This document shows, one piece after another, positions 44,203-51,544 of a stretch of 55,740 nt of DNA (positions are counted from its first letter, which is position 1; the number at the start of each line of letters is the position of its first letter). The stretch is from Candidatus Nanopelagicales bacterium (lineage in GTDB: Bacteria; Actinomycetota; Actinomycetes; S36-B12), in NCBI GenBank assembly GCA_030830865.1, contig JAURME010000017.1:1-55740 (forward strand). Reading direction: 5' to 3'. The notes beneath the pieces are model-generated. The model did no database searches, was not told the origin of the DNA, and saw only the letters and a list, made by a program, of their open reading frames with translations. Both the position numbers and the translations under genes were made by a program.

Positions 44203-45603
44203 TCAGACGCGCACGCGCTCACCCACGTCCGGGACCACCGCCGCGATGTCGAGTTCCCGGCGGATCCGCTCCGCCAGCGCCGCTGACGCCTCGGGCTCGC
44301 CGTGGTTGATGAAGACCTGGGTGGGAAGGGGGCCGCAGGACGTCAGCCACGCGAGCAGTTCATCGGCATCCGCATGGACCGAGAAGGCCTCGATCTCGGC
44401 GATCTCCGCACGCACCGGCACGTACTCGCCGTGGATCTTGATCTCGTGCGCCCCGTCGAGGAGCATCCGGCCGGGTGTGCCGACGGCCTGGTAGCCGACG
44501 AGCAGCACGCAGTTGTCGCGGTCGGGCAGGAGTGCCTTGAGGTGGTGTGTCACGCGGCCGCCGCTGCCCATGCCGGACGCCGAGACGATGATCCGAGCGC
44601 CCCCGCCGTCGAGGGCCATGGACTGCTCCGGAGTGGTCGCCTCATGCAGGTTCGGCAGGTCGATGGCATCCGTGCCGTGCGCGATGACGGCACTGGTGAG
44701 TTCCGGGTCCTCGTTGCGGATGGCGTCGAGATAGACGCGCAGGGCGGCCAGTGCCATCGGGCTGTCGGCATGGATGGGTGCGACGGGGATGCGCTGCTGG
44801 TCCTGCAGCCGCCGCAGTGCCTGCAGGAGGACCTCGGTCCGGTCGACGGCGAAGGCCGGGATGACCACCGTGCCCCCGCGCTTGAGGGTGCGGGTGATGA
44901 CAGCGGCCATCTCATCGATCTCCGCGTCGACGTCACCGTGGTCCCGGTTGCCGTACGTCGACTCCAGGACGACGGCGTCGGCGGCGCACGGTGGCGTCGG
45001 CGGGTCGAGCAGCGGATGGTTTCCGCGGCCGAGGTCTCCACTGAAGACGACCGTGCGCTGACGCGACTCGTCGGTCAGCGTGACCGTCGATGAACCGAGG
45101 ATGTGGCCGCTGACCTCGAGGCGGGCGGTGAGGCCGGGCACCGGGGTGAAGGCGTCGCCGAACTCGACGGGTCGCAGCATCGTGATCGCCCGCTCGGCGT
45201 CCTCGCTGCCGTACAGCGGCTGCGGGTCGGCATGTCGGGAGAAGCCCTTCTTGCGGGCCCAGGCGGTGTCCTCCTCCTGCAGGCGCGCGCTGTCCCGCAG
45301 GATGATTGGCACGAGCGCCGCGGTGTTGGGGGAGCAGTAGACCGGTCCGTCGAACCCCTCCCGCACCAGAGCGGGCACGAAGCCGCAGTGGTCGAGATGG
45401 GCGTGCGTGAGGATGACGCAGGTGAGGGTCGACGGGTCCAGGGGGAACGGGTCCCAGTTGCGGCTGCGGACGTCGCGGGGTCCCTGGAACATCCCGCAGT
45501 CCACCAGCAGCCGCCCACCCGCACCGCCGTCGACCGGCTCGGGCTCGACGAGGGTCCGGGAACCGGTGACGGTTCCGGTGGCGCCGAGGAAGGTCAGGAA
45601 CAC
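44203..45603 (-). CDS. MBL-fold beta-CASP RNA-metabolising hydrolase (TTHA0252/Ysh1-like)
   Basis: LTFLGATGTVTGS, LVDCGMFQG, THAHLDH, GHILGS, FSGDLG, ESTYG, PAFAVDR, FSVHAD, HGE; start GTG 45603. Confidence 0.92.
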   Translation of the reverse strand: MFLTFLGATGTVTGSRTLVEPEPVDGGAGGRLLVDCGMFQGPRDVRSRNWDPFPLDPSTLTCVILTHAHLDHCGFVPALVREGFDGPVYCSPNTAALVPIILRDSARLQEEDTAWARKKGFSRHADPQPLYGSEDAERAITMLRPVEFGDAFTPVPGLTARLEVSGHILGSSTVTLTDESRQRTVVFSGDLGRGNHPLLDPPTPPCAADAVVLESTYGNRDHGDVDAEIDEMAAVITRTLKRGGTVVIPAFAVDRTEVLLQALRRLQDQQRIPVAPIHADSPMALAALRVYLDAIRNEDPELTSAVIAHGTDAIDLPNLHEATTPEQSMALDGGGARIIVSASGMGSGGRVTHHLKALLPDRDNCVLLVGYQAVGTPGRMLLDGAHEIKIHGEYVPVRAEIAEIEAFSVHADADELLAWLTSCGPLPTQVFINHGEPEASAALAERIRRELDIAAVVPDVGERVRV

Positions 45604-45721: not shown

Positions 45722-45737
45722 TCGAACATGTGTTCGA
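45722..45737. promoter_or_regulatory. LexA (SOS) box
   Basis: TCGAAC-ATGT-GTTCGA is a perfect actinobacterial consensus; the palindrome extends to 45719-45740, about 10 nt downstream of the -10 element. Confidence 0.93.
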
Positions 45738-45854: not shown

Positions 45855-46211
45855 ATGTCCCGTCGACACCCACCGGAGCGGGTCGACATGGTGGTGGGCG
45901 CCGATGGTGCGCCAGCGGCCTTCCGCTGGCGGGGTCGGGGATACATCGTGCGCAGCGTTCTCGCGAACTGGGTCGAGGCGATGCCGTGGTGGTCGGGAGG
46001 GATCCCGATCCGGACGGCGGGCGGCCAGAGTCACCTGCAGGGTCACCTGCACAGCCAGCTCTGGCGGGTCGAGGCGAGGGGAGTCACCGGTGCAGGCGTG
46101 TACGACCTGCGGCGGTCCCCCCTTCACATCCACGTGAGCACGACCGTGCGGTCGGCTGACCGGGGAGATGCTGTCAGTGTCTCCTGGTGGGTCGAGCGCG
46201 TCCTCGACTAG
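45855..46211 (+). CDS. DUF6504-like small protein (resembles the ImuB C-terminal domain)
   Basis: RBS AGGAGG; PAAFRWRGRGYIVRSVLANWVEAMPWW...LWRVEA...GVYDL...WWVERVLD. Confidence 0.8.
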   Translation: MSRRHPPERVDMVVGADGAPAAFRWRGRGYIVRSVLANWVEAMPWWSGGIPIRTAGGQSHLQGHLHSQLWRVEARGVTGAGVYDLRRSPLHIHVSTTVRSADRGDAVSVSWWVERVLD

Positions 46212-46229
46212 TACGCCTGGGAGTCCGTC

Positions 46230-46682
46230 ATGTCCGTTGCCTCTGCTGCGCCTGCTGCCCGACCTGCTGCCCGACCTGTTCCCCGATCCGCCGACGCCCT
46301 GCTGGAGTCCGCCCGTCGCAGCCTGACGGAGGCGAGCATCGCCCCCACCGCCGCGGAGCGATACGCCGCGGCCCACCTGTGTGCCCTGCGGGGCGCTGCG
46401 GCCGTCGTCGCCTCCCGCGCCCGGCCCTCCTCGACCCGCTCCCGGGTCACCAGCGTCTGGACCCTGCTGTCCCGATCGACCCCGGAGCTGGGGGAGTGGG
46501 CCACGTTCTTCGCAGCGGGAGCGGCCAAGCGGGCATCGGCGGAGGCGGGGATCCCGTGCGTGTCCGTGCGCGAGGCGGATGACCTCGTCCGGGATGCCGG
46601 GGAGTTCCTGTCCCGCGTGTGCGGGCTCCTCGGTCGCCCGGACCAGCCGGGGATGGGCAGCACACTGCTGCACGTCGGCTAG
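46230..46682 (+). CDS. SAV_6107-family HEPN-fold protein
   Basis: RYAAAHLCALRGAAAVV, SVWTLL...PELGEWATFFAAGAAKRASAEAG, READDLVRDA. Confidence 0.85.
   Translation: MSVASAAPAARPAARPVPRSADALLESARRSLTEASIAPTAAERYAAAHLCALRGAAAVVASRARPSSTRSRVTSVWTLLSRSTPELGEWATFFAAGAAKRASAEAGIPCVSVREADDLVRDAGEFLSRVCGLLGRPDQPGMGSTLLHVG
46251..46286 (+). repeat. 12-bp in-frame tandem repeat (three copies, PAAR-like linker)
   Basis: CCTGCTGCCCGA twice, then CCTGTTCCCCGA. Confidence 0.7.
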
Positions 46683-46688
46683 TCGCCG

Positions 46689-49600
46689 ATGTCCTTCGTG
46701 CACCTGCAGGTGGCATCTGCCTTCTCCCGGAAGTACGGCGCGGCCATGCCGCAGACGCTGGTCCAGCGGTCCGCCGAACTCGGCCAGCCGATCATCGGAC
46801 TGACGGATCGGGACGGCCTCTACGGGGCCGTGCGGTGGGCGCGGGCCTGCCAGGACACCAGGGTGCGTCCGGTCCTCGGGGTCGACATGGCGGTCGAGGA
46901 GACGACGCCTCGGGAGGAAGGCGGTCGGGAGGACGGTGCGTCTCCGCGTCGGCGCACACCGGCTCGTGGCGGTTCGTGGATCGACGAGAGCCGGCCGCGG
47001 GTGCTCCTGCTCGCCTCGGGGGCCACAGGCTGGGCCTCGCTGTGCCGGCTGGTGTCGGCGGCGCATCTGGGGGACCACACCGAGCGCGGCACCCCGGTGC
47101 TCCCGTGGTCGGCCCTGCGACAGCATCACGAGGGGCTCGTCGCGCTGCTGACCGCTGACTCGGAGGCCGGTCGGCTGCTGCTGTCCCAGCGCCAGCATCG
47201 GGTCGCGAGCGTCCTGCGGCCCTGGCGGGCGATCTTCGGGCCACGACTGGGGTTCGCGGTGGTCTCCCATCGGCGTGAGCCGGGACATCGGCTCTCCACC
47301 CGGGCGGCGGCCACGATGCTCGGGTGGGCGCGCAGTGAACACCTCCCGGTCGTGCTGACCAATGCGGTGCGGTACCTCGAGCCGGCGGACTCCCGGGTCG
47401 CCGACGTCCTCGACTCAGCGCGGCGACTGGTGCCCTTGGACTCCCGGCACATCGACCCGGACAACGGCGAGGCGTACCTGAAGGACACCCGGCAGATGGC
47501 GGTGATCGCCGACGAGATCGCCACGGCCGCGGGGGAGTCGAGCGCGCGGCGCCTGTGGGACGACACCCTCCGGCTGGCGGAGTACTGCGCCCTCGACCCG
47601 GCGACCGACCTCGGCCTGGGTGAGGTCTTCGTGCCCGAGCTCGACGTCCTCGTCGGACATCCGGTACCGGCGCAGGAGGCCGATGCCCGGGCCACCGTCC
47701 TGCTGCGCTCGCGCTGCGAGTCGGCGGTCGACCACCGCTACCACCGTCGCGGGGAGCGACGCGAGGCCCGCGCCCGACTGGAGGAGGAGCTGCGCACCAT
47801 CGCCCACCTGCAGTTCGCCGGCTACTTCCTCACCGTCGCCGAGGTCGTCGGGCTGATCCGTGACCGCGGTGTGCGGGTGGCGGCGCGCGGGTCGGGGGCC
47901 GGCAGCCTGGTCAACCACCTGCTCGGGATCTCCGGGGTCGACCCCCTGGGTCAGGGGCTGATCATGGAGCGGTTCCTGTCCCCGCTGCGCCGGGCGCTGC
48001 CGGACATCGACATCGACGTGGAGTCCGCGCGTCGCGAGGAGATCTACGGCTGGATCTTCGCGCGGTTCGGCACCGAGCGCACGGCCGCGGTGTCGATGAT
48101 GGAGACCTACCGCGTACGGCATGCGATCCGCGATGTCGGCATGGCGCTGGGGCTGCCCACCGGCGAGGTGGGTGCCTTCGCCACCGCCTTCCCGCACATC
48201 CGGGCCCGCGACGTGCGCAACGCCCTCGCCGATCTGCCCGAACTGCGTGAGTCCGGGTTCGGTCGGCTGGCGGCGACCGGTCAGCTCGACGGCTTCCTCG
48301 ACCTGGTCGAGAGACTGGACGGCCTGCCCCGGCACATCGCGCTGCACCCCTGCGGCATCCTGCTCTCCGACGCCACTTTGTTGGACCGCACACCGGTCGA
48401 GGGCAGTGCAGCGGGCTTCCCGATGAGTCACTTCGACAAGGACGATGTCGAGGAGATGGGGCTGCTCAAGCTCGACGTCCTCGGTGTGCGGATGCAGTCC
48501 GCGATGGCCCATGCGGTGAGCGAGATCGCCCGGGCCACCGGGGAGGTCGTCGACCTCGACGCTCAGCCTCTGGACGATCCGGCGACCTTCGCGCTCATCC
48601 AGTCGACGCAGACCCTGGGCTGCTTCCAGATCGAGTCCCCGGGACAGCGGGAACTCATCGGGAAGTTCGCACCGGAGACCTTCGGCGACCTCATCATCGA
48701 CATCTCGCTGTTCCGGCCCGGGCCGGTGAAGTCCGACATGGTGACACCCTTCCTGCGGGCGCGGCAGGGCTGGAGCGATCCGATCTACCCGCATCCGGAC
48801 CTCGAGCCTGCGCTGGCGGAGACCTGTGGGGTCGTGGTCTTCCACGAGCAGGTCCTGCGCATCGTGGCCACGATGACCGGCTGCTCGCTGGCCGAGGCGG
48901 ACGAGACCCGGCGGTCGCTGGGCAGTCCGGAGGGACAGGACGACGTCCGCTCCTGGTTCTATCCCGCGGCACTGCGCCGGGGGTACGACCTCGACGTCGT
49001 CGAGCAGGTCTGGGACGTGCTGAAGGCCTTCGCCTCCTTCGGGTTCTGCAAGGCGCACGCCGCGGCGTTCGCCCTGCCGACGTACCAGTCGGCGTGGCTG
49101 AAGACCCATCATGCGGCGGCGTTCTATGCCGGGGTGCTCACCCACGATCCGGGGATGTACCCCAAGCGGCTGATCCTCGACGATGCCCGGAACCGGGGCG
49201 TGCGGATCCTCGGTCCGGACGTCAACCGGTCCGAGGACGTGTACCGGGTCGAGGGTGAGGGCGACGTTCCGGGCATCCGGGTGCCGCTCACGGAGGTGAA
49301 GGGCATCAGTGAGCAGGAGGTCGAACGGATGATCGCCGGTCGCCCCTTCTCCGACCTGGCGGATGCCTGGCGGCGCGGTGGCCTGTCCCGGCCCACGGCG
49401 GAGCGCCTGGTCGTGGTGGGTGCCTTCGATGCGCTGTACAGGCTGGACGTCCCGACCTCCCTGCGCACCCGGGGGCAGCTCTCCCGTCGTGACCTGCTCC
49501 TGCAGGTGGCCGACCTCGATCGCTGGAGCAGGGGTGCCCGGGTCACGGGTCCTGGTGGAGCCCAGCTGTCGTTGGGTCTGGACGCCGAGGGCGACCTGCA

Positions 49601-50297
49601 TGGTGCTGCTCCGTCCACCGGCCTTCCGGAGATGACGGCAGGGGAACGGGTCCAGGCGGAGCTGGAGATCCTGGGGCTCGATGTCAGTCGGCACGTGGTG
49701 GACTTCCACACCCCGATGCTCGAGGAGCTCCGGGTCGCCGGCCTGCCACTGGTGCGGTCCCGCGATCTCACGCGGCAGCGATCACGTAGCGAGGTGTTCG
49801 TCGCCGGGGTCAAGGTGGCGACCCAGACGCCGCCGGTGCGCAGTGGTCGTCGGGTCATCTTCCTCACCCTGGATGACTCCACCGGCCCGGCGGATGCCGC
49901 CTTCTTCGACGATGTCCAGGGTCCCTATGCGGCCACGGTGTTCTCGTCCTGGCTGCTGCTGGTGCGCGGCGTCCTGCGCCGCACCGGCCCGCGTGGGGTG
50001 TCGATCCGGGCGACCGGCTGCTGGGAGCTCGCCGAGGTCCGACAGGCCTGGCAGGAGGGCGGTCCGCCCGGGGTCGGAGCCCTGCTGGCGGCGACCGATG
50101 CCCAGGCGGCGGATGTGATGGCGGGCGATCCGGCGACCGACCGGCCCACGTCGGGACGTCGACGTGTCCTGGTCCACGCCAGCGGCTATCGCCAGTCCCC
50201 CTACGCCGACGTCAAGCCTGCCGGTCCGGGGCGGGCTGTCCCGGCGGCGTCGTTGTGGCACTCGAGCCCGGGCAGTAGCGGGAGGATGGGCACATGA
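46689..50297 (+). CDS. dnaE2: Error-prone DNA polymerase III alpha subunit (DnaE2, Streptomyces-like subtype)
   Basis: ARGSGAGS, ERFLSP, PDIDID, KLDVLG, FGFCKAHA, OB fold; degenerate PHP ligands; ends LWHSSPGSSG instead of SRDFH; SOS-box promoter. Confidence 0.9.
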   Translation: MSFVHLQVASAFSRKYGAAMPQTLVQRSAELGQPIIGLTDRDGLYGAVRWARACQDTRVRPVLGVDMAVEETTPREEGGREDGASPRRRTPARGGSWIDESRPRVLLLASGATGWASLCRLVSAAHLGDHTERGTPVLPWSALRQHHEGLVALLTADSEAGRLLLSQRQHRVASVLRPWRAIFGPRLGFAVVSHRREPGHRLSTRAAATMLGWARSEHLPVVLTNAVRYLEPADSRVADVLDSARRLVPLDSRHIDPDNGEAYLKDTRQMAVIADEIATAAGESSARRLWDDTLRLAEYCALDPATDLGLGEVFVPELDVLVGHPVPAQEADARATVLLRSRCESAVDHRYHRRGERREARARLEEELRTIAHLQFAGYFLTVAEVVGLIRDRGVRVAARGSGAGSLVNHLLGISGVDPLGQGLIMERFLSPLRRALPDIDIDVESARREEIYGWIFARFGTERTAAVSMMETYRVRHAIRDVGMALGLPTGEVGAFATAFPHIRARDVRNALADLPELRESGFGRLAATGQLDGFLDLVERLDGLPRHIALHPCGILLSDATLLDRTPVEGSAAGFPMSHFDKDDVEEMGLLKLDVLGVRMQSAMAHAVSEIARATGEVVDLDAQPLDDPATFALIQSTQTLGCFQIESPGQRELIGKFAPETFGDLIIDISLFRPGPVKSDMVTPFLRARQGWSDPIYPHPDLEPALAETCGVVVFHEQVLRIVATMTGCSLAEADETRRSLGSPEGQDDVRSWFYPAALRRGYDLDVVEQVWDVLKAFASFGFCKAHAAAFALPTYQSAWLKTHHAAAFYAGVLTHDPGMYPKRLILDDARNRGVRILGPDVNRSEDVYRVEGEGDVPGIRVPLTEVKGISEQEVERMIAGRPFSDLADAWRRGGLSRPTAERLVVVGAFDALYRLDVPTSLRTRGQLSRRDLLLQVADLDRWSRGARVTGPGGAQLSLGLDAEGDLHGAAPSTGLPEMTAGERVQAELEILGLDVSRHVVDFHTPMLEELRVAGLPLVRSRDLTRQRSRSEVFVAGVKVATQTPPVRSGRRVIFLTLDDSTGPADAAFFDDVQGPYAATVFSSWLLLVRGVLRRTGPRGVSIRATGCWELAEVRQAWQEGGPPGVGALLAATDAQAADVMAGDPATDRPTSGRRRVLVHASGYRQSPYADVKPAGPGRAVPAASLWHSSPGSSGRMGT

Positions 50298-51544
50298 GCC
50301 GCAGTCAGGTCCGTCGTCCGCAGGGGCGCCTGCACCTCGACGGTGACGACACCGGGTGCACCATCCTGCACGTCGACATGGACGCCTTCTACGCGTCCGT
50401 CTCCCTGCGCGACCGTCCTGACCTGCGCGGCACACCCGTCATCATCGGCGGCGGGGGCACACGTGGTGTCGTCCTCTCGGCCACCTACGAGGCACGTGCC
50501 CTCGGCATCCACTCGGCCATGCCGATGTCCCGTGCACGGCGACTCGCCCCCCAGGCGACCGTGCTCGCCCCGGACCATCGCTGGTACGCCGAGGTCAGTC
50601 GCAACGTCATGTCCCTCTTCCGATCCATCACCCCGATGGTTGAGCCCCTCAGCCTCGACGAGGCCTTCCTCGACGTCTCGGGAGCGCTGCGTCGGCTCGG
50701 GAGCCCGACCGCCATCGCCGAGATGATCCGTGCCCGTGTCGAGGACGAGCAGGACATCACCTGCTCGGTGGGGGTGGCCACCACCAAGTTCGTCGCCAAG
50801 CTCGCCTCAACCCGGGCGAAGCCCGACGGCCTGCTCGTGGTCCCGGCCGATCGGGTGATCGACTTCCTGCACCCCCTGCCCGTCGGCGCGCTGTGGGGTG
50901 TGGGGGAGCGCACAGAGGAGCAGTTGGCCAGGCTCGGCCTGCGGACCGTGGGCGACATCGCCCACACCCCGAGGTCCACGCTCGAGCGCACCCTCGGATC
51001 ATCTCTGGGAGCGCACCTGCACGAGCTCGCCTGGGGACGTGATCCGCGACCGGTGACTGCGGACGAGTCAGAGAAGAGCATCGGCAACGAGGAGACCTTC
51101 CCGCACGACGTCGACGATCCGGAGGTCATCCGCGCCCACCTGCTGAAGCTGTCCGACCAGGTTGCCGCACGACTGCGTCGGGCCGGGCTCGCCGGCCGTA
51201 CGGTCTCCATCAAGATCCGTTTCTCCGACTTCACGACGATCACCCGCTCCCGCACCCTCTCCCATCCCACCGATGTCGGTCGCGAGGTCTACGACACCGC
51301 TCGGCACCTGTACGAGGCACTCGGCCTCGAACGGGTCCGCATCCGCCTCGTCGGCGTGCGCACCGAGGGACTCGTATCCGCTCAAGAGGCTCCTCGACAG
51401 CTCCTCCTCGGCGAGGAGGGCGACGGTCGCCGGGACGCGGAGGTGGCCGTCGACGCGCTGCGGGCCCGATTCGGCGCCGATGCGGTGCGACCCGGACGGC
51501 TCGTGACCGGACCTGCGGACACCGACGCCGAGGGTCCCCGCTGA
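50294..51544 (+). CDS. dinB: Y-family DNA polymerase IV
   Basis: HVDMDAFYAS, YEARALGIHSAMP, SLDEAFLD, KLAS...KPDG, C-terminal QLLL clamp-like motif; ATGA overlap with dnaE2. Confidence 0.95.
   Translation: MSRSQVRRPQGRLHLDGDDTGCTILHVDMDAFYASVSLRDRPDLRGTPVIIGGGGTRGVVLSATYEARALGIHSAMPMSRARRLAPQATVLAPDHRWYAEVSRNVMSLFRSITPMVEPLSLDEAFLDVSGALRRLGSPTAIAEMIRARVEDEQDITCSVGVATTKFVAKLASTRAKPDGLLVVPADRVIDFLHPLPVGALWGVGERTEEQLARLGLRTVGDIAHTPRSTLERTLGSSLGAHLHELAWGRDPRPVTADESEKSIGNEETFPHDVDDPEVIRAHLLKLSDQVAARLRRAGLAGRTVSIKIRFSDFTTITRSRTLSHPTDVGREVYDTARHLYEALGLERVRIRLVGVRTEGLVSAQEAPRQLLLGEEGDGRRDAEVAVDALRARFGADAVRPGRLVTGPADTDAEGPR

Follow-up and report, generated by a model that had tools for sequence, protein, structure and literature searches.

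A LexA-boxed gene cluster for a predicted mutasome, with a HEPN gene, in Candidatus Nanopelagicales, and the distribution of that gene across the class Actinomycetes

Gene content of the locus and its operator

We analyzed a 55,740-nt stretch of DNA (the window) from Candidatus Nanopelagicales bacterium, contig JAURME010000017.1 of assembly GCA_030830865.1 (2.49 Mb in 176 contigs, 95% complete), in which positions 45855-51544 carry genes for a stand-alone ImuB-C protein, a HEPN-family protein, a DnaE2-type DNA polymerase and the Y-family polymerase DinB. Our reading of the open reading frames (ORFs) placed all four on the plus strand with spacings of 18, 6, and -4 bp, and both these coordinates and the Pfam matches of the products bear out the co-oriented four-gene arrangement proposed in the initial annotation of this DNA. 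AGGAGG stands 9 nt ahead of the first ATG, at 45855. The gene order is far beyond chance, being found again in dozens of genomes. The features of the locus are as follows.

45722-45737, no strand assigned: LexA (SOS) operator TCGAACATGTGTTCGA, with the 16-mer pattern common to the recA and lexA upstream sites
45855-46211, plus strand: stand-alone ImuB-C (DUF6504), 118 aa; Pfam PF20114, E = 7.6e-14
46230-46682, plus strand: HEPN_SAV_6107 protein, 150 aa; Pfam PF18726, E = 1.5e-33, 115.6 bits against a cut-off of 27.2
46689-50297, plus strand: DnaE2-type C-family polymerase (DnaE2B-like), 1202 aa; Pfam PHP, DNA_pol3_alpha, finger, HHH_6, and OB
50294-51544, plus strand: DinB (Pol IV), active by its motifs, 416 aa; Pfam IMS and IMS_C; NCBIfam NF003015
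51602-52048, plus strand: DUF3040 gene, the downstream flank; Pfam PF11239, E = 6e-28

The site TCGAACATGTGTTCGA lies 118 bp upstream of the first ATG. Its pattern, TCGAAC-N4-GTTCGA, occurs at only four sites in the 2.49-Mb genome (the reversed-pattern control gave 0), among them one ~165 bp upstream of recA and one ~245 bp upstream of lexA. Because the pattern precedes recA and lexA and is found just four times genome-wide, we identify the site at 45722-45737, by its sequence, as the organism's own LexA operator. The SOS control that had been proposed for the operon is thereby supported at the level of the operator sequence, and the four genes are presumably co-transcribed. A scan for sigma-70-type promoters and terminators found none, a result of little weight for an actinomycete of 70% G+C. 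The fourth perfect box (C171:6440-6455) lies between an argininosuccinate synthase gene on the minus strand and an unassigned ORF, with no obvious SOS gene near it.

The DnaE2 translation contains HLQVAS, TDRD, and TNAVRY, the strings in which the initial annotation had seen a loss of the PHP metal ligands, as well as PDIDID and KLD, which it had listed as retained; these motifs indicate a degenerate PHP domain next to intact polymerase motifs. The protein scores below both NCBIfam cut-offs (627 of 939 bits for the error-prone model, 622 of 1002 bits for the DnaE1 model), and our tree places it within a clade linked to ImuB-C and HEPN genes and separate from the DnaE2 proteins linked to ImuA'-ImuB. 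The C-terminal tails also differ by clade (...KLWHxSPGSxG in DnaE2B, SRDFR in the ImuA'-ImuB-linked DnaE2), and the window's DnaE2 ends in LWHSSPGSSG, typical of the former. Its PHP domain carries an Arg/Glu-rich low-complexity insertion at residues ~70-105, poorly conserved in a 46-sequence alignment.

DinB scores 402 bits against a cut-off of 367 on NF003015 (DNA polymerase IV). Both catalytic motifs claimed for it, DMDAF and SLDE, were found in the translation, and D28, D30, D122, and E123 are invariant across 51 relatives. Its QLLLG stretch resembles a beta-clamp-binding motif, and its tail VDALRARFGADAVRPG resembles, in a by-eye comparison only, the RecA-NT string printed for Streptomyces coelicolor DinB2. 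The AlphaFold2 model of ImuB-C (mean predicted local distance difference test score, pLDDT, of 81) is all-beta with six strands. Foldseek found no PDB fold for this model at E ≤ 0.001, which agrees with the "novel fold" statement in PMC12926913. As a control, PF20114 also matches Caulobacter, an ImuB carrier.

Relation to published mutasome types

DnaE2 mutasomes drive damage-induced mutagenesis and therefore the evolution of drug resistance in actinobacteria, and those free of ImuA and ImuB are known from computation only. We searched the window's genome for the canonical components, namely ImuA' and a catalytically inactive ImuB that carries its own ImuB-C domain. DUF6504 and the Y family each gave a single match, in both cases inside the operon, and the sole Y-family gene is catalytically intact. 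The genome has two DnaE matches, the second being the replicative DnaE1 on another contig. For ImuA', the best score of model NF058630 was 22.5 bits against a cut-off of 65, the model being positive in one control genome, and a single ImuA' protein used as query gave no match. The ImuA model NF033429 was set aside as uninformative, as it gave only RecA-like matches below the cut-off, which the control never exceeded either. RecA is present (479.8 bits). The proposed lack of imuA and imuB hence stood up to both profile and protein searches, and ImuA' and ImuB are likely absent from this 95%-complete genome.

Such modules are in print. Timinskas and Venclovas (Nucleic Acids Research 2019; PMC6511836) described ImuA-less variants, and a later paper from the Venclovas group (Nucleic Acids Research 2026; PMC12926913) reports DnaE2B in genomes without ImuA and ImuB. 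Its "fourth DnaE2B group," given there as confined to Actinobacteria, combines an apparently active PolY with a stand-alone ImuB-C and RecA, and is represented by Tessaracoccus lapidicaptus. According to that paper, the AlphaFold models exceed its interface predicted template modeling (ipTM) thresholds, and the main DnaE2 contact is that of the PHP domain with the ImuB-C beta-barrel. The window agrees with this DnaE2B-[ImuB-C]-PolY-RecA module in that a stand-alone ImuB-C is encoded beside dnaE2, the DnaE2 falls outside the ImuA/ImuB-linked group (by the proxy of our own tree), the Y-family polymerase has intact catalytic residues, and RecA is present while ImuA and ImuB were not found. It is thus a typical representative of a DnaE2 mutasome type without ImuA and ImuB that has already been predicted in print by computation, here with predicted LexA control. 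It differs in the HEPN gene between imuB-C and dnaE2, which goes unmentioned in the main text of PMC12926913; further, the complexes described there are AlphaFold models.

This outcome qualifies three statements of the initial annotation. A split of the ImuB role between a free adaptor and an active DinB holds for this genome, with its free ImuB-C, active DinB, and lack of ImuA and ImuB; as the central idea it is not new, because PMC6511836 and PMC12926913 already predict such modules. Likewise, the statement that the four-part arrangement lacks functional characterization is right for experiments and for the HEPN gene, and overlooks the AlphaFold-based descriptions. The comparison with Streptomyces dnaE2-dinB pairs (dnaE2-dinB2; Tsai et al. 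2012, PMC3273824, as described in PMC12926913) is looser than claimed: these share a DnaE2B-type polymerase and a Y-family gene without ImuA and ImuB, but PMC12926913 describes DinB2 as inactive and ImuB-C as not needed, and HEPN is not beside dnaE2 in the sampled Streptomyces-like genomes.

Two further systems delimit the type. With the canonical mycobacterial ImuA'-ImuB-DnaE2 mutasome, the window shares predicted SOS control, a degenerate DnaE2 PHP domain, ImuB-C as the presumed adaptor to DnaE2, and a Y-family scaffold with clamp-like and RecA-NT-like motifs. In contrast to that system, it has neither ImuA' nor an inactive ImuB, its ImuB-C is free, its Y-family member keeps the catalytic residues, and its DnaE2 belongs to a different clade with the tail ...LWHSSPGSSG instead of SRDFR. 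The Geobacter lexA-imuB-C-polY operon, cited in PMC6511836, is likewise an SOS operon that pairs a separate ImuB-C protein with an active Y-family polymerase, but it has neither DnaE2 nor HEPN and includes lexA itself.

What the window adds is therefore its HEPN gene. Counts of the word "HEPN" were 0 for the main texts of PMC6511836, PMC12926913, and PMC3765255, and 0 for the searched supplementary text of the first two, one file of which was incomplete, PDF supplements aside. A full-text literature search returned no paper linking HEPN with LexA and dnaE2, or HEPN with an SOS box in Actinobacteria, and none on DUF6504. The 2013 HEPN census (PMC3710099) lists "HEPN-M (SAV_6107)" for "actinobacteria," with no conserved Rx4-6H and no context in that entry.

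Distribution of the HEPN gene and architecture of its loci

Across the class, PF18726 was found in 230 of 301 genomes, mostly in single copy, and PF20114 in 156 of the same 301 (both tallies include 7-8 genomes flagged unpublished, which enter into no other result given here). Outside the class, roughly 140 genomes from elsewhere in the phylum gave 4 weak HEPN matches, of which one exceeded the cut-off and three contain an in-frame stop.

We compared loci in two samples, in which genes were called with hidden Markov models iterated on six-frame ORFs and the box was taken as GAAC-N4-GTTC. The first, picked by similarity with the window's HEPN as query, comprised the best 80 of 131 loci at one genome per species. 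The closest relatives among these 80 are Candidatus Nanopelagicales metagenome-assembled genomes (MAGs), with identities of 61-67% for HEPN, 63-71% for DnaE2, and 70-77% for DinB. Upstream sequence of 1 kb or more was available for 76 loci; in 58 of them the gene immediately before HEPN is ImuB-C, and in 71 a box occurs no more than 1 kb upstream of HEPN. The order ImuB-C-HEPN-DnaE2B was seen in 44/63. The second sample, spread over the families of the class, consisted of 59 HEPN-centered loci from 59 genomes, chosen by hand from the 150 best-scoring places. Here 51/58 loci have the box in the 1 kb ahead of HEPN, and in 29/58 ImuB-C immediately precedes HEPN. The background frequency of the box is 0.07-0.09 per kb, the 0.07 figure being that of the class sample and counting these very sites. 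Median gaps were 12 bp from ImuB-C to HEPN (n = 84) and 6 bp from HEPN to DnaE2 (n = 62), with approximate start models. The 57 class-sample loci with enough flank had the following architectures (MTase, S-adenosylmethionine [SAM] methyltransferase).

15/57: box-ImuB-C-HEPN-DnaE2B-MTase-DinB
11/57: box-ImuB-C-HEPN-DnaE2B-DinB (the window's type)
9/57: box-HEPN alone
6/57: box-HEPN-MTase-DinB
5/57: HEPN-MTase without a strict box (4 are Streptomyces-like loci)
4/57: box-HEPN-ImuA'-ImuB-DnaE2A-MTase(-DinB)
3/57: box-HEPN-MTase
1/57 each: box-HEPN-DinB; ImuB-C-HEPN-DnaE2B-DinB without a box; box-ImuB-C-HEPN; HEPN alone without a box

HEPN thus accompanies both kinds of DnaE2 cassette. Behind a LexA box it heads ImuA'-ImuB-DnaE2A cassettes in two families (L090, L091, L092, and L138; also L016 and L068 of Micromonospora), in which the identity of ImuA' is supported by NF058630 (179.6 bits). 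In 45/59 class-sample loci, whatever the cassette holds, its last gene is directly followed by a co-oriented DUF3040 gene; HEPN and DUF3040 bracket a conserved chromosomal site. On the HEPN tree, which is weakly supported for so short a protein, the architecture types interleave, as repeated loss would give, and this pattern suggests that pieces were lost repeatedly from a fuller ancestral operon. The HEPN gene is accordingly a class-restricted, near-universal, and LexA-boxed anchor of the actinomycete translesion synthesis (TLS) locus, and this is the new content of our survey.

The SAM methyltransferase (class I; Pfam Methyltransf_11/12/25) stands between DnaE2B and DinB or right after HEPN. 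It was found in 85 loci in all and in 33/57 of the class sample, and aligns full-length, at a distance, to CmoM (91 bits, the cut-off being 366). We found no orthologue in the window's genome, where the best score was 28 bits, as opposed to 250-330 for orthologues. Examples are as follows.

L084:12275-13018
L025:8427-9146
L085:7535-8362, minus strand

Additionally, we inspected 20 DUF6504-centered loci, picked towards unresolved cases, in 11 of which HEPN adjoins. One of the 20 has a box, ImuB-C, and DnaE2B only. Six (L153-L157, L159) carry a stand-alone ImuB-C with no polymerase or HEPN near, directly behind a LexA box in four of the six; these come from large genomes of one family, each with a second DUF6504 match. 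Genomes with HEPN alone or with HEPN-DinB have a DnaE2A-type gene elsewhere, and in the one Streptomyces-like genome checked, DnaE2B lies ~460 kb from HEPN.

Candidate roles of the HEPN protein

We consider it likely that the region is a LexA-repressed operon for a DnaE2 mutasome independent of ImuA and ImuB, with the HEPN protein as an accessory or regulatory factor. DNA damage would cause LexA to leave the operator, and the four genes would be expressed together. The contacts that we infer would run as follows: in analogy to ImuB and in keeping with the published models, ImuB-C would dock onto DnaE2 at its degenerate PHP domain; the putative clamp-binding and RecA-NT motifs of the active DinB would bring the assembly to the beta clamp and RecA; and DnaE2, DinB, or both would then copy past lesions with errors. 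HEPN_SAV_6107 would assist or regulate the translesion polymerases of actinomycetes generally, rather than be an obligate stoichiometric subunit. The ancient locus may have read [LexA box]-[ImuB-C]-HEPN-[DnaE2B or ImuA'-ImuB-DnaE2A]-[SAM methyltransferase]-[DinB]-DUF3040, with HEPN as its most constant element and the other pieces repeatedly lost.

More tentatively, HEPN_SAV_6107 could be a class-wide SOS gene of Actinomycetes and a dedicated accessory or regulator of translesion polymerases, namely both DnaE2 mutasome kinds and DinB; we regard this wider proposal as plausible but far from settled. The protein would then be a non-canonical HEPN that has anchored the TLS locus from the time the class arose, and it might gate the access or the activity of the polymerases, possibly in concert with the CmoM-like SAM methyltransferase conserved alongside it. 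If it does regulate, actinomycete translesion synthesis would have a regulator left out of current mutasome models. Being small, LexA-boxed, and highly conserved at the head of the locus, HEPN offers a concrete and cheap target for a one-gene study.

Several observations weigh against the operon reading that we favor. Two 1.4-Mb genomes have box-ImuB-C-DnaE2B-DinB without HEPN (L151:8208-12978 and L152:8753-13512), and the class-wide PF18726 search listed no match in either genome. At L104 and L158, ImuB-C-DnaE2B stands apart from HEPN, which means that HEPN need not adjoin the polymerase module; in one genome, the L104 module and a box-HEPN locus (L088) are 4.6 Mb apart. Four Streptomyces-like HEPN loci (L085, L086, L087, and L107) have no strict LexA box. 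As synteny covers the entire block, with DUF3040 at its flank, some of the adjacency may be inherited rather than functional. The locus samples were hand-picked and non-random, and the DnaE2B label rests on our own tree and gene associations instead of reproducing the published authors' classification. HEPN is hence common and LexA-linked, yet neither necessary for the DnaE2B module nor confined to it.

To characterize the protein itself, we modeled its fold and aligned 71 sequences. The AlphaFold2 model (pLDDT 89.8) has helices at residues 19-37, 41-63, 76-105 (kinked), and 113-133, and the best Foldseek PDB matches are HEPN domains (2hsb, 1wol, 1o3u, 3o10, and 1ufb; TM-scores of 0.5-0.65, with weak E values of 0.04-0.7). 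A PDB sequence search with the HEPN profile returned nothing meaningful, and the ESM Atlas only generic HEPN clusters. Invariant residues are R44, A52, R54, W77, W90, F94, R101, A116, D117, and F126; at least 90% conserved are Y45, H49, K100, R114, D118, and R121; and the motifs RYxxAH and READDLxRD are near-invariant across the class. The canonical Rx4-6H motif is located at the end of helix 3 (PMC3710099). In HEPN_SAV_6107 this end reads K100-R101-ASAEAG, with an invariant Arg and no His, and because this His is missing, catalysis by the canonical site appears unlikely. A separate R44-x4-H49 lies at the start of helix 2.

These residues bear on the rival that survives best, in which HEPN is an independent SOS nucleic-acid effector, that is, a damage-induced RNase or an RNA or DNA binder that shares a promoter with the polymerases and makes no contact with them. 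The SOS-linked toxins beside E. coli dinB offer a comparison. We consider this rival unlikely, though several observations favor it: a LexA box is present even at solitary HEPN genes, R44 is invariant and H49 at least 90% conserved (within RYxxAH), and the canonical Arg is retained without exception as R101. According to PMC3710099, moreover, HEPN domains are mostly RNases, and the best structural match, 2hsb, belongs to the AF0298-like HEPNs, for which an alternative His is proposed. Against it stand the missing His of the canonical motif, the listing of the family without that motif in the same census, the lack of an adjoining antitoxin partner or MNT gene and of any PADLOC match, and the persistent place of HEPN at the head of two kinds of polymerase cassette, which suggests a tie to them. 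The likeness to HEPN-MNT toxin-antitoxin modules (Anantharaman et al. 2013, PMC3710099) extends to the four-helix HEPN fold and to the filing of the family in the MNT-associated HEPN-M group. Unlike those modules, the window's HEPN has ImuB-C and DnaE2 as neighbors instead of MNT and lacks the canonical Rx4-6H His, and unlike mobile, patchily distributed toxin-antitoxin modules, HEPN_SAV_6107 is single-copy, near-universal in one class, and, as judged from its boxes, LexA-controlled.

Less probable still is that HEPN is an obligate structural fourth subunit, bridging ImuB-C and the N-terminal PHP domain of DnaE2 or its C-terminal tail. The gene does lie between imuB-C and dnaE2 at the short gaps given above, both here and in relatives, and the order ImuB-C-HEPN-DnaE2B is found in 26/57 class-sample and 44/63 similarity-picked loci. 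The two HEPN-less operons (L151 and L152) also encode a DnaE2B without the conserved tail ...SPYADIKP...KLWHxSPGSxG seen in other DnaE2B. In contrast, these same operons keep ImuB-C, DnaE2B, and DinB, HEPN is solitary, with a LexA box of its own, in 9/57 loci or is accompanied by DinB only, and it heads ImuA'-ImuB-DnaE2A cassettes whose tail-less DnaE2 ends in SRDFR. The tail was therefore dropped as a HEPN docking site, since HEPN also accompanies tail-less DnaE2A, and is kept only as a lead. Apparent fusions of HEPN to DnaE2 or ImuB-C were discarded as Rosetta stones, because the three inspected of seven longer proteins (P0003, P0004, and P0005) are frameshift artefacts, broken inside HEPN. 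The initial annotation had offered HEPN as a "fourth subunit or regulator"; strong conservation and the LexA box support a role of this sort, and, as operons without HEPN and solitary HEPN genes both exist, a regulator or accessory factor is favored over an obligate subunit.

It is very improbable that the adjacency is historical synteny only and HEPN a lineage-specific gene of unrelated function: the block is syntenic as a whole with DUF3040 as its other flank (45/59 loci), and Streptomyces-like genomes keep HEPN-MTase-DUF3040 without polymerases and with no strict box seen, but the box precedes HEPN in 51/58 and 71/76 loci against a background of 0.07-0.09 per kb, the boxed loci include HEPN genes that have moved away from the block, and the HEPN gene is internal to the operon, with imuB-C before it and dnaE2 after it.

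The flanks of the window's operon were also examined. The downstream DUF3040 gene is probably not part of the mutasome. A Pfam search of the flanking genes found no nucleotidyltransferase domain, Rfam and tRNA scans of the window gave no match, and PADLOC matched none of the four proteins. A divergent gene for a beta-CASP/RMMBL metallo-hydrolase (44203-45603, minus strand) borders the same ~250-bp intergenic region as the LexA box. We rejected it as a part of the system because it is not conserved at related loci, where it was seen in only 1/139, 5 kb off. Among the related loci, L009 is a contig of a MAG titled Bifidobacterium breve; its operon shares 59-72% identity with that of the window, and it groups with Nanopelagicales-type loci. 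The label looks doubtful.

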